This document shows, piece by piece, positions 17,105-61,109 of a stretch of DNA of 64,000 bases (positions within the stretch are counted from its first letter, which is position 1; every line of letters starts with the position of its first letter). Under the pieces are notes generated by a model that made no database searches, was not told where the DNA came from, and saw only the letters and a program-made list of their open reading frames with translations. Both the position numbers and the translations under genes were made by a program. The DNA is taken from assembly GCA_002721815.1 (NCBI GenBank), contig PBLQ01000061.1:108905-172904 (forward strand). Direction: 5' to 3'. The stretch is from Myxococcales bacterium (GTDB lineage: Bacteria > Myxococcota > UBA727 > GCA-2721815).

Positions 17105-18388
17105 ATGGCGTTGCATGGAACCCGGTTCGGAAAATACAATTTACTCAAGCGCATCGCCGTGGGGGGCATGGCTGAAATCTTCTTGGCCAGGCAAGAGGGC
17201 CTAGAAGGCTTTGAGAAGATGATTTGCATCAAGCGAATTCGGCCTCACCTATCCAACCAACCCAATTTTGTGACAATGTTTCTCAATGAGGCCAAATTGG
17301 CGGCGCGACTGAATCACCCCAACATTGCGCAAATATACGATTTGGGCCGCATCAACGATTCATATTTTATTGCCATGGAGCACATCAGCGGTCGGGACAT
17401 GAGTCGCATCATTCCCAAGGCACAGACCAAAGGCATTGGGTTTCCCATGGTCTACGCTCTCAAAGTGGCGGCCAACGTTTGTGACGGACTGAACTACGCT
17501 CACACCAAAACGGATGCGTACGGCAACCCACTCCATATTGTTCATCGCGATGTGACCCCCGAGAATTGCTTGGTGGGATTCAATGGCACGGTCAAGCTGG
17601 TGGATTTTGGTATTGCTAAAGCGAACACACAGTTAGAAGAAACCCAGGCGGGCGAATTAAAGGGCAAGTTGTCTTATATGAGTCCTGAGCAAGCCATGGG
17701 AGAGCCCTTAGACCATCGCTCCGATATCTTTTCCTTGGGCGCGATTTTATACGAATGGATCACCAGCGCGCGTATTTTTACCGGCGAAAATGAGATGGCC
17801 ATCCTAAAGGAAATTGTGGACGGTCATATTTATCGTCCATCCTACTTCAAAGATAACGTCCCTGAGCCCGTCGAGAATATTTTAATGCGCGCGTTAGAAA
17901 AAGATCGGGAGAAGCGCTATCAAAGTGCGTGGGAGATGCAGTATGACATCGACACTTATTTGGCATCTTGCGAATTCACCCCATCCAATATTCATCTCGC
18001 AAATTTCTTAAAGCAAATTTTCGAAGATGAAATCCAAGACGAACAAGAGCAATTGGTGCGATTGCGAAATGAGCAAGTGTACCAAGAACCCAGCGCCTAT
18101 GATGACGTGCTGAATGAAGAGGTCTTAGACATAGATGCGCTGAGTGGCGAAATGGTGGCCGCATCCTTGGAAGGGGCCCCCTTGGTGGAGGGAGCTCCAG
18201 AGTTAGGGGAAAGTCCTTTTCATCGTACCCCAACACCTTCAGGGCGATTCACCCAGGGGACCACTGAGCTCACGGTTCAGTTCAGCCAAAAAGAAATGAA
18301 TTCCATAAAGAAAATGGCTGAACACAGTGGGTTAGAGCCGGATCAAGTGGTTCGCGAATTGGTGCGGCAACAGGGGCGATGGACCTAA
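17105..18388 (+). CDS. Eukaryotic-like Ser/Thr protein kinase.
   Basis: GKYNLLKRIAVGGMAEIF, AIKRI-like, HRDVTPENCLV, DFGIAK and SPEQ. RBS CAGGAG. Confidence 0.85.
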   Translation: MALHGTRFGKYNLLKRIAVGGMAEIFLARQEGLEGFEKMICIKRIRPHLSNQPNFVTMFLNEAKLAARLNHPNIAQIYDLGRINDSYFIAMEHISGRDMSRIIPKAQTKGIGFPMVYALKVAANVCDGLNYAHTKTDAYGNPLHIVHRDVTPENCLVGFNGTVKLVDFGIAKANTQLEETQAGELKGKLSYMSPEQAMGEPLDHRSDIFSLGAILYEWITSARIFTGENEMAILKEIVDGHIYRPSYFKDNVPEPVENILMRALEKDREKRYQSAWEMQYDIDTYLASCEFTPSNIHLANFLKQIFEDEIQDEQEQLVRLRNEQVYQEPSAYDDVLNEEVLDIDALSGEMVAASLEGAPLVEGAPELGESPFHRTPTPSGRFTQGTTELTVQFSQKEMNSIKKMAEHSGLEPDQVVRELVRQQGRWT

Positions 18389-31675: not shown

Positions 31676-32725
31676 GTGCAGCATGATCTTTTTTCTAAGT
31701 CGGAGCACAAATCCTATCCCTTCGCCGCGTGGTATATTGAAAATATCAGTAAAATCGCGGGGATAGATGAGGCAGGGCGCGGTCCATTGGCGGGACCCGT
31801 GGTGGCGGCTGCGGTGGTGCTCGATCCCAGCACCACTTTTTTGGCGGAGTTGGGTGATTCGAAAAAGCTGTCCGAGAAAAAGCGCGACGTCCTTTTTGAT
31901 CTGATTCACCAAGAAGCAATAACCGTGGGCGTTTCGGTTGTGAGCCCAGCTGAAATTGATCAATTGAACATTTTACAGGCCACTTTGTTGGGCATGAAAA
32001 ACGCTTTCGCGCGTGCGGAGCAAGAACGGGGCCGTAACATCTTGGGTGCCATCGTCGATGGTAACCAGAGAGTCATGCTTCCCCACAGGGTGGTTCAACA
32101 CACGCTGGTGGGTGGTGATGCCAAATGTCCGTCGGTGATGGCGGCATCGATTATTGCGAAGGTCACGCGAGACCGCCTCATGAAAAAAGCAGACATCGAT
32201 TACCCCGCATATGGGTTCGGAAAACACAAAGGGTACGGAACCAAAGCTCACATCTCGGCACTTCAGGAACATGGTCCTTGTGAATTACATCGAACAAGTT
32301 TTCGCCCCGTCAAGGATGCACTCGTCAAAGCGGAGGGCCGTCTTTCCGTGACCACGACTACCGAAGTGGGTCGAACGGGAGAAGACGAAGCTTCCAATTT
32401 TTTGAAAGCGCAGGGCGTCAGCATTCTCGAAAAAAATTATAAGATGGCACGGGGTGAAATCGATCTCATTGGCATGGATCAAAACACATTGTGTTTTGTC
32501 GAAGTCAAGACGCTTCGCAAAGCTGGATTCAAGCCAGCCCACCACCAAGTGAATGCACGGAAGCAAAAGCATCTCATTCAAGCTGCACAGTCCTACCTTC
32601 AGCGACACCAACGTTATCGTGATCATTCCTGTCGGTTTGACGTTATCTCTGTGGAAGGACCGGTTGAGCGTCCTCAGATCCAATGGCACCGAGCTGCTTT
32701 TGAGAGCCCGGTAAAAGGAATTTAA
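31676..32725 (+). CDS. rnhB: RNase HII fused to a C-terminal YraN/UPF0102-family endonuclease domain.
   Basis: N-terminus IAGIDEAGRGPLAGPVVAAAVVL...DSKKLS is RNase HII. C-terminus EASNFLKAQGVSILEKNYKMARGEIDLIGMDQNTLCFVEVKT is YraN-like. The 349-aa ORF is continuous. Confidence 0.75.
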   Translation: MQHDLFSKSEHKSYPFAAWYIENISKIAGIDEAGRGPLAGPVVAAAVVLDPSTTFLAELGDSKKLSEKKRDVLFDLIHQEAITVGVSVVSPAEIDQLNILQATLLGMKNAFARAEQERGRNILGAIVDGNQRVMLPHRVVQHTLVGGDAKCPSVMAASIIAKVTRDRLMKKADIDYPAYGFGKHKGYGTKAHISALQEHGPCELHRTSFRPVKDALVKAEGRLSVTTTTEVGRTGEDEASNFLKAQGVSILEKNYKMARGEIDLIGMDQNTLCFVEVKTLRKAGFKPAHHQVNARKQKHLIQAAQSYLQRHQRYRDHSCRFDVISVEGPVERPQIQWHRAAFESPVKGI

Positions 32726-41873: not shown

Positions 41874-43703
41874 GTGTCAGCCTTTCTGCTCAAAAACCCA
41901 CGAAGTCACAATTGTAACCAACTCACCAAGGACAATCTCAACGAAGAAGTGGTCCTGATGGGCTGGGTGAACAGCTTGCGCGATCATGGCGGCCGACGCT
42001 TTGTTGATCTTCGCGATCGATACGGCTTAACGCAAATCGTATTTAAGCCCGAAACCGACGAAGCTTTGCATCAGTTGGGCCATGCCATGCGAAATGAGTG
42101 GTGCATCGGCATTCGCGGTGTGGTGGAAGATCGTGTGGCCAATGGTGGGGCACCCAACACCCGTCTGACCACAGGCGAAATCGAAGTGAACGTGTTAGAG
42201 GTGGAAGTGTTTAATGCCGCGGAAACACCGCCCTTCATGGTTGAAGATAATGTGGACACCCATGAAGAAAAGCGGTTGCAACATCGAACCATCGATCTGC
42301 GGCGTGCACCCATGCAGCGTAATTTCATCATGCGTCACAAAGTGGCCCAGGCGGCTCGACGCGCATTAGATGACGACGGGTTCTTAGAAATCGAAACGCC
42401 CATGCTGGTGAAATACACGCCAGGTGGGGCGCGTAACTTTATTGTGCCTTCGCGTTTACACCCAGGCAGCTTTTACGCCTTGGCTGAGAGCCCCCAGTTG
42501 TACAAACAAATGTTGATGATGTCGGGTTTCGATCGTTATTTCCAAGTGGTGAAATGCTTTCGTGATGAAGATTTACGCGGCGACCGTCAACCTGAGTTTT
42601 CTCAAATCGATTTGGAAATGAGCTTTGCTTCGGAACGTACGGTCCAAGAGGTGATCGAGCGGTTGGTTACTCGAATTTTTAAAGACGTACTCGATCATGA
42701 CTTGCCTCAAGTCTTTCCGAGCATGACTTACCATGAGGCCATGACCCGTTTTGGTTCGGATAAACCAGACACGCGATTCGGCTTAGAGTTGAAAGATCTG
42801 ACGGCTTGCCTCAAAGACATTGGGGGCGGCGGTGTTCCTCTGTTCGCTCAAACCATCGACCGGGGTGACATTATCAAATCCATGGTGGTGCCCAAAGCAA
42901 ACCCCATGTCACGCAGTGAAGTAGACAAGCTAGAGGGCTTGGTGAAGTCTTTAGGTGGTTTTGGTTTGGGACGGGCGAAAGTCGGGGAGGATGGCGCTTC
43001 TTGGACCCAATCACCGTTCTCCAAACACGTGACGCCGGAAGGCATTCAAGCCATTCATGAGGCCACGGGTGCACAGCCAGGCGATTTAATTTTGTTTCAA
43101 ATGGGTAAGGCCAAATTAGTGAACACCGTGTTCAATGGACTGCGACTCAAACTCGGCGCTCAGTTCGGTCTCATTCCTGAGAGTGGCCCCGATGCTTGGC
43201 ACGTGATGTGGGTCACTGACTTCCCGTTGTTTGAGCATGACGAAGAGAGCAATACTTTTGCTGCCGCGCACCATCCGTTCACATCCCCCCAAATGGGCCA
43301 TGAAGACAAGTTAAAAACCGACCCCGGTGCCTGTCTCAGTCGTGCCTATGATTTGGTGATTAACGGAAACGAAATTGGTGGGGGCTCCGTCCGGATTCAC
43401 GATCAAGAAGTTCAAGCCAAAGTATTTGATGCCATGGGCATCGGTGAAGAAGAGAAACAGGCCAAATTTGGTTTTCTCCTGGACGCGCTCAAATATGGTG
43501 CGCCACCTCATGCGGGCGTGGCGTTGGGCTTGGACAGGCTCTGTATGCTCTTGTCGGGGACTCAATCCATTCGAGATGTGATCGCATTTCCCAAAACACA
43601 GCGCGGACAAGACGCGGTGACTGGTGCGCCCACGCCTGTGGATCTACAGCAGTTGAATGAGGTTTATATCGCTTCTACCGCTCCTGACGATGAAGACGAT
43701 TAA
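41874..43703 (+). CDS. aspS: Aspartyl-tRNA synthetase.
   Basis: RSHNCNQL N-terminus, class II motifs FRDEDLRGDRQPEF (motif 1/2 region) and GGGSVRIHD...G(L)DRL (motif 3), plus the GAD insertion. Confidence 0.95.
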   Translation: MSAFLLKNPRSHNCNQLTKDNLNEEVVLMGWVNSLRDHGGRRFVDLRDRYGLTQIVFKPETDEALHQLGHAMRNEWCIGIRGVVEDRVANGGAPNTRLTTGEIEVNVLEVEVFNAAETPPFMVEDNVDTHEEKRLQHRTIDLRRAPMQRNFIMRHKVAQAARRALDDDGFLEIETPMLVKYTPGGARNFIVPSRLHPGSFYALAESPQLYKQMLMMSGFDRYFQVVKCFRDEDLRGDRQPEFSQIDLEMSFASERTVQEVIERLVTRIFKDVLDHDLPQVFPSMTYHEAMTRFGSDKPDTRFGLELKDLTACLKDIGGGGVPLFAQTIDRGDIIKSMVVPKANPMSRSEVDKLEGLVKSLGGFGLGRAKVGEDGASWTQSPFSKHVTPEGIQAIHEATGAQPGDLILFQMGKAKLVNTVFNGLRLKLGAQFGLIPESGPDAWHVMWVTDFPLFEHDEESNTFAAAHHPFTSPQMGHEDKLKTDPGACLSRAYDLVINGNEIGGGSVRIHDQEVQAKVFDAMGIGEEEKQAKFGFLLDALKYGAPPHAGVALGLDRLCMLLSGTQSIRDVIAFPKTQRGQDAVTGAPTPVDLQQLNEVYIASTAPDDEDD

Positions 43704-46435
43704 GAATTTTCGGTCATAAATTTGAGCCAGAGCAGGGTCCCATCCTGGTCGGTTTGCAGTGACGCTGGATGGCGAAGTTCAATGCGCAATGAAACGCGGT
43801 GCCGGCCATCTTCCTCCACATGGGGCAAGAGCCGCACCACGCTGGCATCAATATCCGAGGCGTCCAAAATACGTCTCACTTTCAGATTGCCTGCGCGTGT
43901 GTCTAAGAGTTCGACAATATAGGTTGTCGGACTTTCTTGTTTGACCGAATACTTTGCGCCCCCGCTGATTTGAACCCCAACGCTACTGCTTGCGTCTTTG
44001 TTTTTTACCACCATGAGACGGTTGAGCACGTTACGGCCCGGTTCATCATTTTTTGGGTTTGACAGCCCACCAAAGCGCCGCGTTGCTTTCTTTTCCACTG
44101 GAACCTGCCAGTATTGGTTTTTGAAATGTAGGATTTGTGCAGTGAGACGATCTTCATTGGGTGTGGGCTTCATTTGAGTCTCAGGGGTGTCAGCCCTATT
44201 GTCGCGGCGGGATAATTTGAGTTCTTCTTGTTTTTGATTTCGCAATTCGAAGATCTCTTTTTGCAAGTGATGTTTTTCCTGGGCCATTGTTTTCATCTGT
44301 TTTTGGACCTCTTCGAAGTGCTGGACTTGCGCCAATCGTTTTTTCTCATTCGCTTTTTCGAGGTCTTGGGTCTGTTGGAGCGATGTCCGAATGGCTGCTT
44401 CTTGGGTTTTTAAATCATTAAGAATCTTGGTCTTGGCTTTTTCTTGCGCCGCCCTTTGCTGGAGCAGTTCATCCATCTTCTTTTTTTGTTGGGATAAAGC
44501 CATGAGACGGGCTTCTTGTTCTGCTTGAAGGGACGATTTCTCTGCCAATGTTTGACTCAGTTCCGTTTCCTGCTTTTGTAGGTTTTGAAGCTGTTTCTTT
44601 TGCTGCTCTTGCTCAGCGCTGATGAGTTGGATTTCTTTTTCCATCTTTGCTTTCAGGCCCGCCAGGTGCTTCAGCTCTGTTTGGTGATTGCTTTGAATCT
44701 TTTGGTGTTGGGTTAACAAGCGGTCCTGATCGGTTTGGGCGATTTGTTGGTGTTCAATATAAGCCTGTCGCTTCGCTGCCAATTGTTGTTCAAGCGTCAC
44801 ACGCTCGGTCTTTAACCGACGCAATATTTGCTCTTCTTTTCGCATCAAGCGTCGCTTTTGCTGAAGTTTTTCTTGTTGTTCTTCTTCTGTTTCAGCGAGG
44901 AGGATTGCCTTTTCGTTTTGGGCCAACTGCAGTTCTGTTTGCAGCTTGAGCCTTTGGGCTTGAAGGAGGTTGACCGCGTGGGTCTCCTGTCGCAACAGTT
45001 GCTCCTTTTCTTCGATAATAAGTTCTTTCTCTTCTTTCGATTTCTTCAGAAAAGCTTTGTGTTGTGACTGGTATTGCTGGATTTCAGTCTTCAGTTTTTT
45101 TCGGGCCGTTCGCAATGTCTCTATTTCACTACGTTTTTGCTTGAGTTCCGCTTCTTTTTCGAGGAGTGCTGCTTGTCTTTCCAATCTGAGTGCTTCTCGC
45201 TCTTTTTGACCTCTGGCCAAAGCTTGTAAGAGCTCTTTGTGAGCGAGTGATTGGTTGTGCAGTTCCTGTTGCAGTCGCGTTTTTTCATCTACGAGAAATT
45301 CGAGTTCTTTTTGTTCCTTTTCTATATTGACCAAATTTTGTTGTCGCTTTTTGGCGGCTTGGGTGAGGGCCCGCAGACTGACTTCTTCATTCTTTTTTCG
45401 CTTCACCAAGGCGTTGATTTCATTTTGGAGCTTTTGCTTACGGTCTTTTTCATTGGCCCATTCATTGTCCATTCGCGTGTTGAGGGTTTGGGTTTGGATT
45501 TGGATGGTGGCGAGCGTTTCTTGTGCTTCTTGGAGTTCCCCTCTCAACTCAAAGAGCTGGTGAGAGGCGGTGTCACTCTTTTGCGTTAATTTTTCCAGTT
45601 CTGCTGATTTGCGTTCGTACATGCCTTCCAAGAGCTTGATGTCTTGCAGGCGTGCCTGACGCTCCGCTTGGTTTTTGGTCACTTCTCGTTGCTGAGTGTT
45701 TCTGGTTTGTCGTGTTTCTTGTAACAGGGTCAGCATTTCTTCCCGTTTTTCTTGGGTGGCTTGGAGCATGTCTCTGTGTCGTTGGTCTTGCTGCAAAACC
45801 TTCTCGTGCAACTGGGCCAACAGTTTTTCTTTGTTGGCTTGTTCCTGGAGCAGTTGTTTTTGGTGGGTTTCCAGGATTTTCGCGGTCCGGTTGACTTCTT
45901 TTTTGAGTCGTTGGAGTTCTTTTTGGGTTTTGGCCTGTTCCTGTTTGATGAGGCTTTGTTCGGCTCGAGCGGCTTTTTCCAGTTGGGTGCGGGCTTGAAA
46001 ACGCTTTTTCTTCAGGGTGATGAGGGCCTTTTTTTCTCCTAAGTAGTTGAATTCAAAAGCAATACCCCTTTTTTGGCCTTTGATTGCGTATTCCACCGGG
46101 CCATTGAAGATCAGCAGGGCGCGGGGGTTTTGAATGTGGCGCCCCTGCCGTTGCTCGAAAATGATGTCGTGCAATAAGAGCCCGTCGGGGATTTTCGGGG
46201 TGGGCAAGTCGGAAATGTTCACCCCGGGCAGATCAATGGCATAGCGATTGTCTTCTCCCAGACTGTAGATTTGAAAGCCGGGCAACTTATTGCCCTGAAT
46301 GCGAAAGACCGCTTTTTCGTGTCCGTCCAAATGAATGGAGACTTTTTCAATTTTGGATGGTGTGGCCCAGACCGTTTGCCCGGCGCAAACGGTGACCAAA
46401 AACAAAAACAAAGAAAGGCGGGTTAGGTGTTGCAT
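43700..46435 (-). CDS. Periplasmic giant coiled-coil protein: signal peptide, N-terminal AMIN-like domain, ~600-aa Q/E/K-rich coiled coil, C-terminal AMIN-like domain.
   Basis: MQHLTRLSLFLFLVTVCAGQTVWA signal. KVSIHLDGHEKAVFRIQGNKLPGFQIYSLGEDNRYAIDLPGVNI matches the AmiC/PilQ AMIN pattern (...RLVIDLPG...). Continuous heptad-like EQ/KL-rich sequence follows. Confidence 0.55.
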   Translation of the reverse strand: MQHLTRLSLFLFLVTVCAGQTVWATPSKIEKVSIHLDGHEKAVFRIQGNKLPGFQIYSLGEDNRYAIDLPGVNISDLPTPKIPDGLLLHDIIFEQRQGRHIQNPRALLIFNGPVEYAIKGQKRGIAFEFNYLGEKKALITLKKKRFQARTQLEKAARAEQSLIKQEQAKTQKELQRLKKEVNRTAKILETHQKQLLQEQANKEKLLAQLHEKVLQQDQRHRDMLQATQEKREEMLTLLQETRQTRNTQQREVTKNQAERQARLQDIKLLEGMYERKSAELEKLTQKSDTASHQLFELRGELQEAQETLATIQIQTQTLNTRMDNEWANEKDRKQKLQNEINALVKRKKNEEVSLRALTQAAKKRQQNLVNIEKEQKELEFLVDEKTRLQQELHNQSLAHKELLQALARGQKEREALRLERQAALLEKEAELKQKRSEIETLRTARKKLKTEIQQYQSQHKAFLKKSKEEKELIIEEKEQLLRQETHAVNLLQAQRLKLQTELQLAQNEKAILLAETEEEQQEKLQQKRRLMRKEEQILRRLKTERVTLEQQLAAKRQAYIEHQQIAQTDQDRLLTQHQKIQSNHQTELKHLAGLKAKMEKEIQLISAEQEQQKKQLQNLQKQETELSQTLAEKSSLQAEQEARLMALSQQKKKMDELLQQRAAQEKAKTKILNDLKTQEAAIRTSLQQTQDLEKANEKKRLAQVQHFEEVQKQMKTMAQEKHHLQKEIFELRNQKQEELKLSRRDNRADTPETQMKPTPNEDRLTAQILHFKNQYWQVPVEKKATRRFGGLSNPKNDEPGRNVLNRLMVVKNKDASSSVGVQISGGAKYSVKQESPTTYIVELLDTRAGNLKVRRILDASDIDASVVRLLPHVEEDGRHRVSLRIELRHPASLQTDQDGTLLWLKFMTENS

Positions 46436-47028
46436 GCGTCCCTCGTGTTTGAACAAGTTCTCGACATTAACAACCCGATCCTGATCGTCAACTTTATGAA
46501 CGTTTTTAAAGGGTTCGCAGCGTCGAGACTTGTAGTTTTTTCAGGGCCGAAGAAAAAGAGCGAGACCGCGTTTGAGAAAGTGTTGCGAGTTGATTGGAGT
46601 GGGAGGCGGCGCTCGCTCCAAGGGCATTCTTGCAGCACCACTTGAGGTTGCCCCTTTAAGTCCTTGAAAATGATCCAATTTTAAAATTTCGAGGGCTGGG
46701 TTTTGTGAGGCAAACCCCTGCTGCGGGCGCCGGGTCATCCAGTGGAAAAAAGGTGGGATAAACGCCTACTGTTTGCAAAGGTGGATGGCTCAGGCTGATG
46801 GAGTGGCTCTAATAGAGCCAAGGTGGAATGGCCGTGGTGGGATGTGCGTCAGAAGCCCAAAGCGGCTTTAATGAGTGTTTGAGGGCAAAAAAAGCGGTTT
46901 GGCACCCAATTTTTGCAAAAACCCATGGAAAACGAGGGGCATAATAGGTAGGTTTCACCGGATTTTGATTCAGGCTCGAGACCCCATCTGAGGGGATCAA
47001 GGCCCATTCGCTTATAAGGAGACAGATA

Positions 47029-55738: not shown

Positions 55739-56158
55739 ATGGGGCCGAGCTTGAATTCTTTTGCGGGACGCATTTTTTTAATTTTTTTCATAGTCGGGGG
55801 TTCATCCTGCCTTTCATCGGCGCCCGTGGCAACCACTGGCCTTGCGGCGGGCGAATTGTGCCATGCTAATTTGGATTGTGCTCAGGGGCTCTTTTGTATG
55901 TGCAGCCGTTGTGTGGCGCACCCGGTTCAAATGTATCCTGCTCATTGCCCACAAACCTCTCATTTACTGGATTGTGCGACCGGGGCGGACATCTGTGTGG
56001 GGTCCTGTGAGAAAAGGGACAATTCGGTACGAGCAACGTGTAATTCTGGGCTGTGGTTCTGTCCAGAAACCCATGTCCTTGAACAGCTTTGTGAACCATT
56101 GCCCGCCAATGGGGGGGATGCAGGGCCTGAAGTTCTCACGGATGCTGCAGTTCCTTAA
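55739..56158 (+). CDS. Small Cys-rich putative lipoprotein (hypothetical).
   Basis: Signal/lipobox ...FFIVGGSSC, then about 13 Cys in ~110 aa (CHANLDCAQGLFCMCSRCVA...). Confidence 0.4.
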   Translation: MGPSLNSFAGRIFLIFFIVGGSSCLSSAPVATTGLAAGELCHANLDCAQGLFCMCSRCVAHPVQMYPAHCPQTSHLLDCATGADICVGSCEKRDNSVRATCNSGLWFCPETHVLEQLCEPLPANGGDAGPEVLTDAAVP

Positions 56159-56223: not shown

Positions 56224-58413
56224 ATGCAGGAATTTATGTTACGTCTCAATGATATCCTGGATAAGGTAACAGCCTATTACCCCGAAGCGAATCTTGACGT
56301 GCTTCGTAAGGCATACATCTATTCCGCAAAAGTGCACGGTGGGCAGGTGCGAAAGAGCGGAGAACCGTACCTCACCCATCCGTTGGCTGTCGCTTTTATT
56401 TTAGCCGAGCTAGAATTGGATGAAGCCAGTGTGGCCACCGGTCTGTTGCACGACACCGTTGAAGATACTTTGGCGACCACAGAGGAAATAGAATCGCTGT
56501 TTGGGAAAGACATTGCCGCCTTGGTGGATGGCGTCACCAAGTTAGCGCAAATCCATTTTCAAAATCGTGAAGAGAAACTGGCCGAAAACTTTCGTAAAAT
56601 GTTGATCGCCATGTCTCAAGACATCCGCGTGTTATTGGTCAAGCTTGCCGATCGTTTACATAACATGCGCACGCTCGAACACATGCCATCGGACAAGCAA
56701 AAACGAATTGCGCGCGAGACCATGGATATTTATGCACCTTTGGCAAACCGGCTCGGTATTTCATGGGTGAAAGTCGAGCTTGAGGACCTCAGTTTTCGAT
56801 ACATCAAACCGTTGGATTATGGCGATTTATCGGACAAACTGGGAAAGACGCAAAAAGAGCGTGAAAAGTTTATTGAAGATGTCACAGCTGAAATCCGGTC
56901 CGTCCTCAAACGGGCGGGGCTGCCTGAGTTTGATGTCTCTGGTCGCCCTAAACATTTGTGGTCCGTTTTTAAAAAAATGGTCTCCAAAAGCATCCCTTTT
57001 GAAGAAGTGCACGATTTAATCGCATTCCGAATTATCGTCGACAATGTAGGGCAATGTTATGAAACACTGGGCCATATACACAGCATTTGGCGACCCATAC
57101 CGGGGCGATTCAAAGACTATGTCGCCATGCCTAAACCCAATGGTTACAAGTCTTTGCATACCACGGTGATCGGGCCCAAGGCCGAACGGATTGAAATTCA
57201 AATCCGAACCGACGAAATGCATCATGTGGCAGAGTCAGGCATCGCCGCTCACTGGAGCTATAAAGAGGCGGGTTCGGTTGCGACCATCGTGAAAGGTAAC
57301 GATTCTTTTGCGTGGCTGAGGCAACTCATGAATTGGCAACGTGAGCTGGTGGATCCCAACGAGTTCATCGATTCCGTGAAAGTGGATTTGTTTGCCGATG
57401 AAGTTTACGTGTTCACCCCTGGGGGTGACGTGCTTGAGCTGCCCCGGGGGGCGACGGCGGTAGACTTTGCTTTTGCGATCCACACTCAGGTGGGTGAGAC
57501 GTGCATCGGTGCGAAGGTGAATGGGCGGCTGATTCCATTAAAAACAGAGCTGCGTAACGGGGACACCATCGAAATCTTAACGCGCAAAGGACAAAAGCCC
57601 AATAAAGATTGGCTTGAGTTTGTAAAGACCACGCGGGCGCGCACCAAAATCCGTGCGTACCTTCGGATGCTCGAGCGCGAACGTTCTTTACAGATAGGCA
57701 CAGAACTGCTGGAGAAGGAGTTTAAAAGGTACGGGGCATCGCTATCAAAGTTCGTCAAAAGCAAAGCCATCGAAAAAGCTTACGAGGGCACCAAGCATGG
57801 CAGTGCCGAAGATGTGATTATCCACGTGGGTTACGGAAAAATGGCAGCACAAGCTGTTGCACAAAAAGTACTCCCTGACGACGTCTTTCGAAAACCGCAG
57901 GAAAAACCACCCACCAAAAGTCGCTTGGGGCAACTGATCGACCGTGTGGCGCGCCGTTCCTCATCTGGTGTGATTATCGATGGCATTGAGGACATGTTGG
58001 TTCATTACGCTCGGTGTTGTTATCCGGTCAAAGGCGATGCCATTATCGGTTTTGTCACCCGTGGGCGTGGCCTCACCATTCACCGCAGAGATTGTCAGAA
58101 GATTCACCAGTTGGACCCAGAACGTCGCATTACGGTGAACTGGGACAACAAAGTGGACTTGTCTCGGCCCATGAGCATACGTGTGGTTTCTGATGACCGG
58201 GAAGGTATGCTCTCCGAACTGTCTAACGCGTTCACCAAAAATAAAATGAACATCTCGCAGGCCATTTGCAAAAGCAGAGGGGACGGGACGGCTGTGAATA
58301 CCTTCAAATGTGGCGTGATCAGCCTGGATCAACTCCAAAAAGTGGTGAAAGCTTTAGAAGGGGTGAAAGGCGTTCGGTCCGTAGAGCGGGCGAAAAACGT
58401 AGAACCTCAGTAA
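56224..58413 (+). CDS. spoT: Bifunctional (p)ppGpp synthetase/hydrolase, RelA/SpoT homolog.
   Basis: HD hydrolase motif LHDTVEDT, the synthetase domain (RFKDY...), then TGS and ACT domains. 729 aa. Confidence 0.95.
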   Translation: MQEFMLRLNDILDKVTAYYPEANLDVLRKAYIYSAKVHGGQVRKSGEPYLTHPLAVAFILAELELDEASVATGLLHDTVEDTLATTEEIESLFGKDIAALVDGVTKLAQIHFQNREEKLAENFRKMLIAMSQDIRVLLVKLADRLHNMRTLEHMPSDKQKRIARETMDIYAPLANRLGISWVKVELEDLSFRYIKPLDYGDLSDKLGKTQKEREKFIEDVTAEIRSVLKRAGLPEFDVSGRPKHLWSVFKKMVSKSIPFEEVHDLIAFRIIVDNVGQCYETLGHIHSIWRPIPGRFKDYVAMPKPNGYKSLHTTVIGPKAERIEIQIRTDEMHHVAESGIAAHWSYKEAGSVATIVKGNDSFAWLRQLMNWQRELVDPNEFIDSVKVDLFADEVYVFTPGGDVLELPRGATAVDFAFAIHTQVGETCIGAKVNGRLIPLKTELRNGDTIEILTRKGQKPNKDWLEFVKTTRARTKIRAYLRMLERERSLQIGTELLEKEFKRYGASLSKFVKSKAIEKAYEGTKHGSAEDVIIHVGYGKMAAQAVAQKVLPDDVFRKPQEKPPTKSRLGQLIDRVARRSSSGVIIDGIEDMLVHYARCCYPVKGDAIIGFVTRGRGLTIHRRDCQKIHQLDPERRITVNWDNKVDLSRPMSIRVVSDDREGMLSELSNAFTKNKMNISQAICKSRGDGTAVNTFKCGVISLDQLQKVVKALEGVKGVRSVERAKNVEPQ

Positions 58414-58540
58414 AAACAGCTTCTTACCCGCATAGATGGCCGAAAACTTTGTGTAGAAAGTGCTCGTAAAAACATTGCACGGGCCTTGGCTTTTATTGCA
58501 TGATAATCGCCTGAACAAAGACGAATTTGGAGAACGTTGC

Positions 58541-60475
58541 ATGTACACGGTGACGCTGAAGGAAAAAGGCGGGACTGCCAAAGAATTGGATTTTGACCAA
58601 GAGCAAATCACGATTGGTCGAATTCAAGGCAATGATATCGTTTTGCCTAAGGGCAACATTTCCAAGAGTCACGCCAAGATCGTTTGCAAAGATGAAAAAT
58701 TCATTGTGGCCGATCTCAAATCAACCAATGGCACCTTTGTTAATGGCAAAAAGATCATGGCTCCCCAAGTGGTGATCGATACCGACAAAATCTACATTGG
58801 GGATTTTGTGATCACCTTACAAATGGTGTCTGCTGGTCAAGACGATGAAGATGAATTACACCCCATTGAAGAAACCGGTGACCCCGTTAAAGTCGACGAT
58901 GACGTTTTCGCCATGGACGAACCAGCGCCTCCTTTTGTCGACGATGACGATGTTGAAGAGGATTCAGACGAAGATCCCCGCGCAGCTTTAGAAGAAAGCT
59001 CGGATGAAAGTGATGGTTTTGACGCCGAACTGGAGAATATGGCGAACGATTTGTCTGTTTCACAGGATGACGAATCGGCAGAAAGCGACGAAGAGGCTGA
59101 TGAATTTGATTTGGCCGAGGCATCCGTTCCAGAAATAAGTCCACAGGAAAAAGCAGCGGCAAAACCTGCGCCGGAGTTTACTAAAGATGTGGCTGTGGAC
59201 ATGGATTACGAGCGTGAAAGACCCCCGGCGCACGTGAGCTTAGAGCCTCCGAATATCGATAAAGCTGCTTGGCAGGCTCGAGCCGCTGTTTATCGGTCCG
59301 TTTTTAAAGCGCTCAACACCATGGACCAAGCGCTCAATGGCGATCCCGACACCCACAAAAAGGCAGAAAATGCAGCGGCCAAAGCGTTGGAAGCGGTGGC
59401 CAAAAAGCTCGAAGGTGTGCAAGTTGAGCTTTGGGCCAAAGAAATCGCAGATGAGATTGCAGGTCTAGGTGTGATCGATTCAATGTTTACAGCGGGTGCA
59501 GAAGAAATATTGGTACGGGCCTACGACGATATTTTGTTCACCCAAGGGGGAGAACTGAAAACGGCTGACAGTTTCTTTTCAGCGCAAGAGGCGCTTGAAG
59601 AAATCGCCTACCGCATCGGTGGTCAAGAATTTCGTAAAGGTGAGGCCGCCGTCGTTTCAGGCACACACGTCTCGGGTATGCAATTCACGGTCATTGCCGC
59701 GGATGCGGCAGGCACGGGGCCCGTTTTGTGTTTGCGAAAAAAGCAAACCGAAAGCAAAAGCTTTGAAGAGCTCGAGCGCGATGGTGTTTTATCGCCGGCC
59801 ATGACTGATTTTTTGTTGGTCTGTCTCAAAGCCAAAAGAAATATTCTGATTTGTGCTGCCAATGGGGCCGATCTGAATGCTTTTCAAGGAAGTTTGGCAA
59901 AGCTGATTTCCAACCAAGAACGACTGTTGGTGTTACAAGCTCAACCCGCCTTGGCGCTTCCCCAAGAGCAAGTGGTTTCCATGATCGTTGACGATGAGAA
60001 TGCGGATGCATTGGCAAAATCCATGGTGTTTTCCCGCTTTGATCGGGTGGTCGCCAGTGGATTTGGTGGGCGTCTCTTGGGCGCGGTGTTGGTGCACGGT
60101 GGACAGGTGCAAGCCGGGAACATCGTGTCCTGTCACGCGGGATCGGTGCGACATGGTTTAAATCAAATGGTGTTGAGTTTGAGCGGATACGAACAAGAAA
60201 ATGGATTTGCATCTCAAGCCCAAGTGGCCAATGCCATCGACGTGGTCGTCCATCTCGCTCGTGATGTGACGGGGCAGGATCGCGTCACAGAAATTTCGGA
60301 AGTTCTGGATGTGGAAGTAGACTTCATCACCCTTCAATCGCTTTTTCGTTGTGATGTGGGGGCATCGAAAGCCAAAGGTGAAGGGGTTTTTCATCCATCA
60401 GGCCACCTGCCGCGATTCTATGAAGATTTGCAGCGCTGGGGTGTGGATGTGAATCTCAAAGTATTCAAAGTCTAG
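58541..60475 (+). CDS. FHA-domain protein with an acidic linker and a C-terminal CpaF/TadA-like secretion-ATPase fold lacking the Walker A lysine and the catalytic Glu (pseudo-ATPase).
   Basis: FHA: ITIGRIQGNDIVLP...SKSHAKIV...STNGTFVNG. The C-terminus aligns to CpaF (ILICAANGADLN versus IIVSGGTGSGKT; DRVVASGFGG versus DRIIVGEVRG; SCHAGS versus TIHANS). GGAGA RBS. Confidence 0.7.
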   Translation: MYTVTLKEKGGTAKELDFDQEQITIGRIQGNDIVLPKGNISKSHAKIVCKDEKFIVADLKSTNGTFVNGKKIMAPQVVIDTDKIYIGDFVITLQMVSAGQDDEDELHPIEETGDPVKVDDDVFAMDEPAPPFVDDDDVEEDSDEDPRAALEESSDESDGFDAELENMANDLSVSQDDESAESDEEADEFDLAEASVPEISPQEKAAAKPAPEFTKDVAVDMDYERERPPAHVSLEPPNIDKAAWQARAAVYRSVFKALNTMDQALNGDPDTHKKAENAAAKALEAVAKKLEGVQVELWAKEIADEIAGLGVIDSMFTAGAEEILVRAYDDILFTQGGELKTADSFFSAQEALEEIAYRIGGQEFRKGEAAVVSGTHVSGMQFTVIAADAAGTGPVLCLRKKQTESKSFEELERDGVLSPAMTDFLLVCLKAKRNILICAANGADLNAFQGSLAKLISNQERLLVLQAQPALALPQEQVVSMIVDDENADALAKSMVFSRFDRVVASGFGGRLLGAVLVHGGQVQAGNIVSCHAGSVRHGLNQMVLSLSGYEQENGFASQAQVANAIDVVVHLARDVTGQDRVTEISEVLDVEVDFITLQSLFRCDVGASKAKGEGVFHPSGHLPRFYEDLQRWGVDVNLKVFKV

Positions 60476-61109
60476 TTAGAAATTCTTTCAGCGTTTTGTT
60501 GGGCTCCGCGCTTTCGAAAGGTGCTCCCATGAATGCCAGTCCGTGGGCGCCAGCGCTCAGAACGCTTTGCGCATGTTTGGGAACGATACCGCCCAAGCCA
60601 ATGACAGGTATCTGGCATTGGGCAATCGCAGCGGACAATTGCGGCAGCCCCAACGCTTCCTCTTGCGACGTCTTGGAAATAGGCTGAAAAATAGGTGAGA
60701 AAAAAAGATAGTCAGCCCCCAACGCGCCTTCATCACCCTTCAAAGTGCGCTGATGCCGAGAACAACCCAAAAGGGGATTAGGCCCCAATGCCTGACGAAC
60801 AGGTGCCAGCGGAGTTTGATCGGGGCAGTGAAGACCCGCCAAGCCCAAGTCTTGCACCCATTTGGGGTCTCCATAGGTCATGAGCTGTCGGCCCCCTTCA
60901 GGTAATTGGTGCGTGAGCCACTCAAGGTGGCTGTATGCGATCTCGGGATCCTGCGTTTTTCCGCGGTACAACAGCATGATGCGGGCGCGTTGTTCCGCAG
61001 AGAGGGTTCCAAAAAGATCCGTAATGGCTGAAAGATCCAGCCCCTTTTTCTCTAAGAGCTGGGGGCAGATGAGCCAAAAAAGATGTGGAATGGTGTTATG
61101 GCGGCTCAT
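60465..61109 (-). CDS. Thiamine-phosphate synthase (ThiE/TenI family)-like protein.
   Basis: GADYLFFSPIF...SKT and IPVIGLGGI...GAHGLAF motifs. Confidence 0.55.
   Translation of the reverse strand: MSRHNTIPHLFWLICPQLLEKKGLDLSAITDLFGTLSAEQRARIMLLYRGKTQDPEIAYSHLEWLTHQLPEGGRQLMTYGDPKWVQDLGLAGLHCPDQTPLAPVRQALGPNPLLGCSRHQRTLKGDEGALGADYLFFSPIFQPISKTSQEEALGLPQLSAAIAQCQIPVIGLGGIVPKHAQSVLSAGAHGLAFMGAPFESAEPNKTLKEFLTRL

Follow-up and report, generated by a model that had tools for sequence, protein, structure and literature searches.

The window analysed here, a 64,000-nt stretch of contig PBLQ01000061.1 from a Myxococcales bacterium (assembly GCA_002721815.1), contains a gene for a 644-aa protein in which an FHA domain is joined, through a disordered acidic linker, to a module with the full CpaF/TadA fold (three-helix bundle, N-terminal domain and ATPase domain). 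This layout was confirmed by Pfam, phmmer, AlphaFold2 and Foldseek, and bears out the open reading frame (ORF) and the order of FHA domain, acidic linker and CpaF-like module given in an initial annotation made from the sequence alone. Type IV pili, Tad pili, type II and type IV secretion and also archaella are driven by PilT/VirB11-like ATPases, a superfamily to which the C-terminal module belongs by its fold and descent (CpaF/TadA branch, KilF sub-branch). As judged by alignment to CpaF, the module lacks all of the nucleotide-site residues and is hence catalytically dead. KilF, the ATPase of the Kil system, is FHA-fused and is needed for contact-dependent prey killing in Myxococcus xanthus (PMC8460266). 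The window protein is very probably a conserved, catalytically dead paralogue of KilF/CpaF that has kept a competent FHA reader; its anatomy and family are solid. The gene and the features of its product are the following (pLDDT, predicted local distance difference test of AlphaFold2):

58541..60475, + strand: gene for the 644-aa protein (FHA domain, acidic linker, dead CpaF-like module), ORF with stop codon included
58541..58831, + strand: FHA domain, residues 1-97 (Pfam PF00498; pLDDT about 90)
58832..59233, + strand: disordered acidic linker, residues 98-231 (pLDDT <50)
58865..58885, + strand: IEETGDP motif, residues 109-115 (with T112), right behind the FHA domain and kept in the three subclade members
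58886..58921, + strand: acidic [LV]F short linear motif VKVDDDVFAMDE, residues 116-127, from the linker comparison
59246..59500, + strand: three-helix-bundle region (3HB), residues ~236-320 (AlphaFold2 helices 241-259, 269-290 and 298-317; aligns to the 3HB of CpaF)
59501..59785, + strand: N-terminal domain (NTD) of the CpaF-like module, residues ~321-415, from the CpaF alignment
59786..60472, + strand: C-terminal ATPase-fold domain (CAD), residues 416-644, from the phmmer alignment, AlphaFold2 and Foldseek
59855..59878, + strand: Walker A remnant AANGADLN, residues 439-446, aligned to the GGTGSGKT of CpaF and KilF-type proteins
59930..59953, + strand: Asp-box remnant VLQAQPAL, residues 464-471, from the CpaF alignment
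59987..60013, + strand: truncated extended pore loop, residues ~483-491 (alignment gap against CpaF T325-T337)
60041..60070, + strand: Walker B remnant DRVVASGFGG, residues 501-510, from the CpaF alignment

Fold, active site and FHA domain

A phmmer search against the Protein Data Bank retrieved CpaF (9e24, 8rkd) with an E-value of 2e-17 over residues 238-637. The NCBIfam profile TIGR03819 of the TadA family matched with E 4.5e-22 (78.7 bits, cut-off 373), and the VirB11 profile reached 47 bits (cut-off 250); Pfam T2SSE (PF00437) gave no match to the window protein even at E up to 1. The AlphaFold2 model has pLDDT values of mostly 70-94 over residues 236-644, and a Foldseek search with it placed CpaF (8rjf/9e24) on top (E 3e-28, target TM 0.74), followed by FlaI, archaeal GspE, VirB11 and PilT. 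The C-terminal similarity to CpaF/TadA secretion ATPases that had been read from the letters is therefore significant by sequence and by fold. The closest solved structure is that of Caulobacter crescentus CpaF/TadA (9E24, 8RJF, 8RKD), and in both proteins a disordered region in the N-terminal part precedes 3HB, NTD and CAD. CpaF is an active bifunctional motor without an FHA domain, encoded in a cpa/tad operon, whereas the window protein has an FHA domain and a replaced active site.

The roles of the CpaF residues were taken from a cryo-EM and mutagenesis study (PMC12019362), in which the K287A change abolished ATPase activity. In the window protein the Walker A motif GGTGSGKT is replaced by AANGADLN (K287 by L445, T288 by N446), the Asp box CEDAAEL by LQAQPAL (E308 by Q466, the Mg2+-binding E312 by A470) and Walker B IIVGEVRG by VVASGFGG (E357 by G507). 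The inter-subunit Arg finger R347 is F497; in the NTD, the Arg fingers R217 and R223 correspond to a gap and to Q381, and D215 to G374. The histidine of the first His box is a Q, and that of the second is kept as H532 in the window protein and is a Y in its orthologue L001. The NTD motifs GRRxDExxP (alpha5/loop-8) and DARLxDGSR are gone, and the extended pore loop is 8 residues shorter than T325-T337 of CpaF. A motif scan of the 644-aa protein found neither GxxGxGK[ST] nor the looser [GA]xxxxGK[ST], so that no intact P-loop occurs elsewhere in the C-terminal domain. The alignment confirms the loss of the P-loop Lys and Thr and of the catalytic Glu, for which the initial annotation had called the module catalytically dead; this description is upheld and is extended by the loss of the Arg fingers and the truncation of the pore loop, both of which had gone unnoticed. 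For the CpaF-CpaG/H motor, contacts with the platform through the pore loop and the GRRxDExxP region are an AlphaFold3 prediction, not experiment; the CpaF elements so predicted are degraded in the window protein.

The FHA domain is well preserved. PF00498 matched residues 23-87 (E 6.3e-17, 62.2 bits against a cut-off of 20.7), the N-terminal part was also matched by Pfam Yop-YscD_cpl (E 1.6e-10), and the NCBIfam TagH profile gave E 7.9e-18 at 65.5 bits, far under its cut-off of 120. The phosphothreonine (pThr)-binding residues G26-R27, S41, H44 and N63-G64 are all present and are invariant in 23 homologues, which agrees with the phospho-Thr reader first proposed and makes a dependence on Ser/Thr kinases plausible. 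The domain is 63-65% identical to the FHA domains of KilF-type ATPases and 62-67% identical to those of a clade of relatives without the P-loop Lys (the Lys-less clade, described below), and just 36-41% identical to the remaining FHA domains encoded in a Kil cluster. For the ATPase module, identity to that of KilF is 25-28%. Since the FHA domain stayed nearly unchanged while the ATPase module drifted, its phospho-ligand would be conserved, and is probably shared with KilF.

Relatives, gene neighbourhoods and the upstream region

The FHA-linker-CpaF architecture was found in all of the best 120 database matches, which fall into two clean groups. Approximately 75 of them, from Myxococcaceae, Archangium, Hyalangium and related taxa, have a perfect GGTGSGKT. 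These canonical KilF-type loci are clustered with genes for an FHA protein, a prepilin peptidase, a secretin and a large double-FHA protein, which is the arrangement of Kil cluster 1. KilF (MXAN_3102-3108 cluster, PMC8460266) resembles the window protein in its N-terminal FHA domain, its acidic disordered linker, the order 3HB-NTD-CAD, the strong conservation of the C-terminal ~70 residues and its origin in the phylum Myxococcota. It differs in keeping GGTGSGKT, the Asp box, Walker B, the His boxes and the Arg fingers, motifs of which the window protein has kept no more than the second His-box histidine (H532); in addition, KilF-type genes adjoin prepilin peptidase, secretin and FHA genes, neighbours that the window gene lacks, and the acidic LF motif in the linker of the window protein is not present in KilF. 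KilF is recruited to prey-contact sites, and a role in a phospho-signalling cascade has been proposed for the Kil FHA proteins (PMC8460266, PMC12428579).

The matches nearest to the window protein all lack the P-loop Lys and have GGPGA[GQ]xGT as their P-loop. This Lys-less clade comprises roughly 65-70 clusters at 90% identity, every one of them from metagenome-assembled genomes or metagenomes. In its core members K287 is replaced by T, V, I or A, T288 by G and the Mg-binding E312 by Arg, and both His-box histidines are lost, while the Walker B Glu, the three Arg fingers, a full-length pore loop and detectability by PF00437 are retained; their C-domains are 71-88% identical among members. The window protein is 31-36% identical to this clade in the C-domain, and a rough neighbour-joining tree placed its subclade as a long-branch sister of it. 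Features shared with the clade are the missing P-loop Lys, the acidic LF motif and a convergent thiE gene downstream, and the differences from the core clade are AANGADLN, F497, G507 and A470 in the places of GGPGA[GQ]xGT, an Arg finger, a Glu and an Arg. KilF, the Lys-less proteins and the fully dead window protein form a series of increasing degeneration, with the last of them as its end-point.

Two orthologues from independent metagenomes, L001 and L002, have the same architecture (56% and 52% identity) and share the dead motifs: their P-loops contain ANGAD, a Gly stands in the place of the Walker B Glu, and the pore loop has the deletion. Of these three subclade members, the window protein has degenerated furthest. 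Between the window protein and L001, identity is 90% in the FHA domain, 40% in the linker, 65% in the 3HB, 37% in the NTD, which is the least conserved folded region, and 62% in the CAD. For the NTD, the raw NG86 dN/dS is ~0.5, from a near-saturated dS of 1.25. Synonymous sites being saturated between the two, dN and identity per domain are usable for this pair and dN/dS is not. Since the 3HB and CAD remain 65% and 62% identical despite this saturation, both are under purifying selection; the NTD seems to be weakly constrained. The subclade is rare: 1.84 billion representatives yielded one cluster at 50% identity and some fragments. A protein identical to that of the window (P0001) is present on an 84.8-kb marine metagenome contig from Tara Oceans, and GenBank MBL93222.1 (659 aa), named 'hypothetical protein [Myxococcales bacterium]', is a >90% identical twin. 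PADLOC gave no anti-phage defence match for the window protein or for two clade members.

The linker contains 38% D+E and 5% K+R over residues 99-235; the D/E-rich linker described earlier is thus present, although its length is ~135 aa and not ~110. An acidic [LV]F motif, here DDDVFAMDE with V122-F123, occurs in the linkers of 29 of 35 members of the Lys-less clade (observed in linkers of the P0004-P0033 set), as against none of the 75 canonical KilF-type proteins. It looks like a candidate partner-docking motif, acquired with a new function. A sequence similar to the adjacent IEETGDP, DETGYAPDDEE, was found in 8 of 75 KilF-type linkers, and T112, which lies in an acidic context, may be a phospho-site and kinase target, or else an intramolecular ligand of the FHA domain itself.

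Four genes of the window are relevant to the context of the FHA gene:

56224..58413, + strand: bifunctional RelA/SpoT homologue (spoT), upstream, with HD, RelA_SpoT, TGS and ACT domains
60465..61109, - strand: thiE-like TMP-TENI gene, convergent downstream, the synteny anchor with the wider Lys-less clade
17105-18388, + strand: complete Hanks-type kinase (Pfam Pkinase)
1-1089, - strand: Hanks-type kinase, partial at the window edge (HRDLKPEN..DFG)

The immediate surroundings are of housekeeping type: a NUDIX-like gene, a small Cys-rich ORF, spoT, the FHA gene, the thiE-like gene, prfA and DUF1385, and, past the window end on the contig, rpmE and then a PAS histidine kinase. No tad, cpa, kil, pilin, platform (T2SSF), secretin or prepilin peptidase gene was found in the 64-kb window or in 6.5 kb of contig flank, and in the window tblastn with four PATAN regulators detected nothing beyond a sigma-54 activator's REC domain (~35.6-36.4 kb). 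The two Hanks kinases to which the initial annotation had pointed do exist, but lie 40-57 kb away and are not specifically linked to the FHA gene. The Cys-rich ORF (55739-56158, + strand, 139 aa), located between the NUDIX-like gene and spoT, has a hydrophobic N-terminus and no Pfam match, and is also called as a gene in metagenome annotation (L091, 7199-7618).

The wider Lys-less clade was represented by eight distinct loci outside the window subclade, none of which lies inside a Tad/Kil cluster. A PATAN-REC response regulator is encoded immediately upstream in five of the eight, several of these sharing a block of pntB, Omp85/POTRA, CarboxypepD_reg, the PATAN response regulator, the FHA-CpaF-like gene, thiE/G/S (in some) and Mrp/ParA. 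A divergent double-FHA protein and an extracytoplasmic function (ECF) sigma factor accompany the gene in two loci, one of them with an anti-sigma factor, and Omp85 is directly upstream in one. In Synechocystis, PATAN domains bind PilC and PilB1, an ATPase of the same superfamily (bioRxiv 10.1101/2021.06.11.447907). The clade resembles this system in the PATAN-REC adjacency at five of eight loci, with none at the window or its contig flank, and by this analogy a PATAN/pseudo-ATPase pairing is a reasonable lead at the level of the family. A convergent thiE gene is found downstream in the window, L001, L002, L003, L005 and L090, and this synteny, common to the window and the wider clade, supports orthology. 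In contrast, spoT is upstream only in the narrow subclade (window, L001 and L002), whose SpoT proteins are 80-84% identical; the genomes being so closely related, synteny with spoT is little informative. In L003 (11975-16284; the same as L004 2036-6345), three prepilin-type N_methyl genes for pseudopilin-like proteins and a gene for a 777-aa protein of unknown family come after the FHA-CpaF-like gene and stand before thiE. They may be left over from a type IV filament system or be a link to one that was acquired, and such N_methyl genes were seen in no other examined clade locus.

Databases name these proteins 'pilus assembly protein CpaF', 'TadA' or 'hypothetical protein'. As the window protein has lost the Walker A, Asp-box, Walker B and Arg-finger residues and has none of the genomic context of a Tad ATPase, it should not be filed as one; the names "CpaF" and "TadA ATPase" mislead, and genome surveys of Tad ATPases would over-count.

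The longest ORF spanning the gene runs from a GTG at 58460 to 60475 (+), and the best-supported start is the ATG at 58541, which gives 644 aa. A GGAG is found 8 nt 5' of this ATG, and the resulting N-terminus, MYTVTLKEKGG, agrees with the consensus of 23 homologues and with the two closest orthologues, L001 and L002; because the ribosome-binding site and the homologue N-termini favour it, ATG 58541 was preferred, and it is also the choice of the metagenome gene caller of ENA. Two longer readings were dropped, the GTG at 58460 and a start 15 codons upstream, probably the TTG at 58496, that is implied by the 659-aa NCBI twin. The upstream extension is not conserved as protein and meets a stop in L002. 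The spacer between the spoT stop (58413) and the ATG is therefore 127 nt, and the 46-nt gap on which co-transcription with spoT had been proposed arises just from the unsupported GTG. No terminator-like site was found in the 127-nt spacer, so read-through from spoT would be possible. The spacer also holds a conserved element of its own:

58474..58504, + strand: conserved upstream cis-element, direct repeat ATTGCACG-N13-ATTGCATG with the block TTTTATTGCATGAT

The repeat (58474-58502) has 21 bp from start to start and lies ~37 nt 5' of the start codon, and its 14-nt block is invariant in L001 and L002 while the remaining spacer has diverged. The window contains no second copy, the 91 fetched loci have the element only upstream of this gene, and Rfam gave no match to it. 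It is most simply read, from its position and conservation, as the putative operator or promoter region of the gene itself. A sigma-70 scan gave nothing on the + strand of the spacer, and a reading of TGGC...TTGCA as a sigma-54 promoter was rejected, since L002 alone has the correct GG-GC spacing, which in the window and L001 falls 2 nt short.

A genome-collection scan with FHA-based patterns gave 80 loci among the matches listed; these were mostly canonical KilF and degenerate paralogues, with no orthologue of the window protein among them. Further FHA-CpaF-like paralogues were seen, in the neighbour-joining tree as well, in Polyangia, Sandaracinus, Nannocystis punicea, Sorangium, Kofleriaceae and Bradymonadia (L009-L052), with independently degenerate P-loops such as GAMGSGVSS, GPSDAGVAQ, GTRDAGTSW and GATGSGRST and, for most, no secretin or peptidase gene within 10 kb. 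Degenerate FHA-CpaF paralogues thus seem to form a large radiation in Myxococcota. Five other proteins that scored high over several stretches in the search of representatives (P0140, P0141, P0143, P0148 and P0163) were rejected as relatives of the dead clade, being made of two to three tandem canonical CpaF modules per polypeptide with intact Walker A. The third module of P0140 lacks the stretch between Walker A and the His box. Unless they are assembly artefacts, these proteins could represent ATPase rings whose modules are covalently fused and not equivalent to one another.

Proposed function and alternatives

For the function of the protein we infer as the most likely, tentatively and with a confidence just short of even, an ATP-independent and phosphorylation-gated scaffold or adaptor, not a motor, that would be recruited by pThr. 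The protein is a pseudo-ATPase descended from the KilF-type FHA-fused Tad/CpaF motor of Myxococcota, with the fold kept and the engine lost. A Hanks-type kinase would write a pThr mark, probably of the same kind that recruits KilF, given that the FHA domain is nearly as similar to that of KilF as to those of its own clade; the FHA domain would bind this mark, and the dead ATPase body, together with the acidic LF motif of the linker, would hold or sequester partner proteins. The recruitment or assembly of an envelope machine could then be modulated by docking and not by a subunit that turns over ATP. In other systems, an FHA domain that reads a kinase-made pThr licenses the assembly of an envelope machine, as do Fha1/TagH with PpkA in type VI secretion (T6SS) and the cytoplasmic domain of YscD in the type III secretion system (T3SS). 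These FHA scaffolds differ in having no CpaF-like module, and no T6SS or T3SS genes are present in the window. The authors of the Kil work themselves liken Kil to the T6SS (PMC8460266).

Some of the results weigh against this scaffold. Neither a PATAN regulator nor a Kil/Tad gene is encoded in the window or the contig flank. The strong conservation of the FHA domain could reflect an intramolecular role instead of a shared ligand. With 37% identity, the NTD changes nearly as quickly as the linker, so that part of the module may be weakly constrained, and the neighbour-joining tree that places the subclade is rough and open to long-branch effects.

The initial annotation had suggested that the protein caps a real secretion ATPase hexamer. 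In such an arrangement the dead module would join, or stack on, an active KilF/CpaF hexamer encoded elsewhere and throttle a Tad- or Kil-like machine under kinase control. The three-domain CpaF fold, the C-terminal ~70 residues strongly conserved with KilF-type proteins and an FHA domain very close to that of KilF (63-65% identical) are consistent with a poisoning or capping subunit, and the natural fusions of two to three CpaF modules, with the internally deleted third module of P0140, make non-equivalent rings conceivable. We nevertheless consider it unlikely, and the proposal is at present unsupported by the genomic context, with no tad, cpa or kil gene in the window and flank and no Tad/Kil gene at the eight related loci. 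The Arg fingers that complete the active site of a neighbour are gone, so that the protein could not support catalysis in an adjacent subunit; the NTD, which is the inter-subunit packing unit, is its least conserved folded part, and the pore loop is truncated. Moreover, cultured Myxococcaceae with Kil systems yielded just canonical KilF among the matches listed in the searches. The scaffold is favoured over the poisoning of a ring because the parts that make up the inter-subunit packing units, Arg fingers and NTD, are missing or little conserved and the loop for platform contact is truncated.

A remodelled pocket that binds a nucleotide or small molecule in a non-canonical manner, making the protein a ligand-gated switch, would suit the Lys-less clade, which keeps a Gly-rich P-loop, the Walker B Glu and three Arg fingers and in which the coupled changes of K287 to T/V/I and of E312 to R look like remodelling and not decay; the loop's ANGAD core is also conserved within the window subclade. 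For the window protein itself this is improbable, as its Arg fingers are F and Q or a gap, its Walker B Glu is G and its position 312 is A, and among the three subclade members it has gone furthest in degeneration. At the other extreme, only the FHA domain might matter, the C-terminal module being inert bulk in slow decay. The long branch of the subclade, its rarity (one 50%-identity cluster and fragments), the failure of PF00437 to detect the module and an NTD just 37% identical between orthologues would fit such a relic, to which we give a similarly low probability: the 644-aa frame is intact in independent samples, the CAD and 3HB are 62% and 65% identical despite saturated synonymous sites, the AlphaFold2 fold is confident, and even with KilF the last ~70 residues at the C-terminus show high conservation. 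Least probable of all is an accessory role in the stringent response, in which the protein, co-transcribed with the RelA/SpoT homologue, would couple Ser/Thr-kinase signalling to (p)ppGpp metabolism or sensing. The gene does stand directly 3' of spoT, in the same orientation, in the window, L001 and L002, across a 127-nt spacer with no terminator-like site, but adjacency confined to three genomes with SpoT proteins 80-84% identical lends weak support. Across the wider clade, the place upstream is taken by a PATAN regulator, Omp85 or a double-FHA gene, never by spoT, and the sole common neighbour, thiE, is on the opposite side; the private direct-repeat element suggests that the gene has a control region of its own.

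A broader extension of the phosphorylation-gated scaffold is possible but doubtful. Within Myxococcota, a pilus or predation motor would have been turned into a family of non-catalytic signalling hubs that kept the KilF-type reader, gained a private LF docking motif and became mostly paired with PATAN regulators or with double-FHA proteins and ECF sigma factors, merging Ser/Thr-kinase and two-component signals to time or place the assembly of Kil, Tad, type IV pili or other envelope machines. The core clade would then have a nucleotide site with relocated charge (Thr, Val or Ile for the Walker A Lys, Arg for the Mg-binding Glu), which would make its members sensors and not motors, and the window protein would be the fully nucleotide-independent end-point of the series.

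To our knowledge, the known regulators of PilT/VirB11-like ATPases comprise small stand-alone proteins, c-di-GMP domains and active paralogues. Full-text literature searches yielded KilF, CpaF structures, PilB cofactors and PATAN regulators, and no description of a catalytically dead FHA-CpaF paralogue or of a dead PilT/VirB11-like ATPase. A conserved lineage of KilF-derived pseudo-ATPases would, if true, be a new kind of regulator for the Kil/Tad field, where the step from prey contact to machine assembly is an open question and FHA proteins are a suspected link (PMC8460266, PMC12428579). Active KilF, the Lys-less proteins with Arg fingers and the fully dead protein would also provide a graded natural series for the passage from motor to scaffold.

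Other observations in the window

At 43700-46456 (- strand), a 918-aa protein without a Pfam match has a signal-peptide-like N-terminus and small beta-rich end domains, AMIN-like by eye, around a probable coiled coil of ~650 aa that is rich in Q, E and K. The composition of this protein accounts for the low GC and the strong AT skew (-0.49) at 44-46 kb. A 349-aa ORF at 31676-32725 (+ strand) combines RNase HII (residues 28-211) with a UPF0102/YraN-like domain (residues 235-326), an apparent gene fusion.

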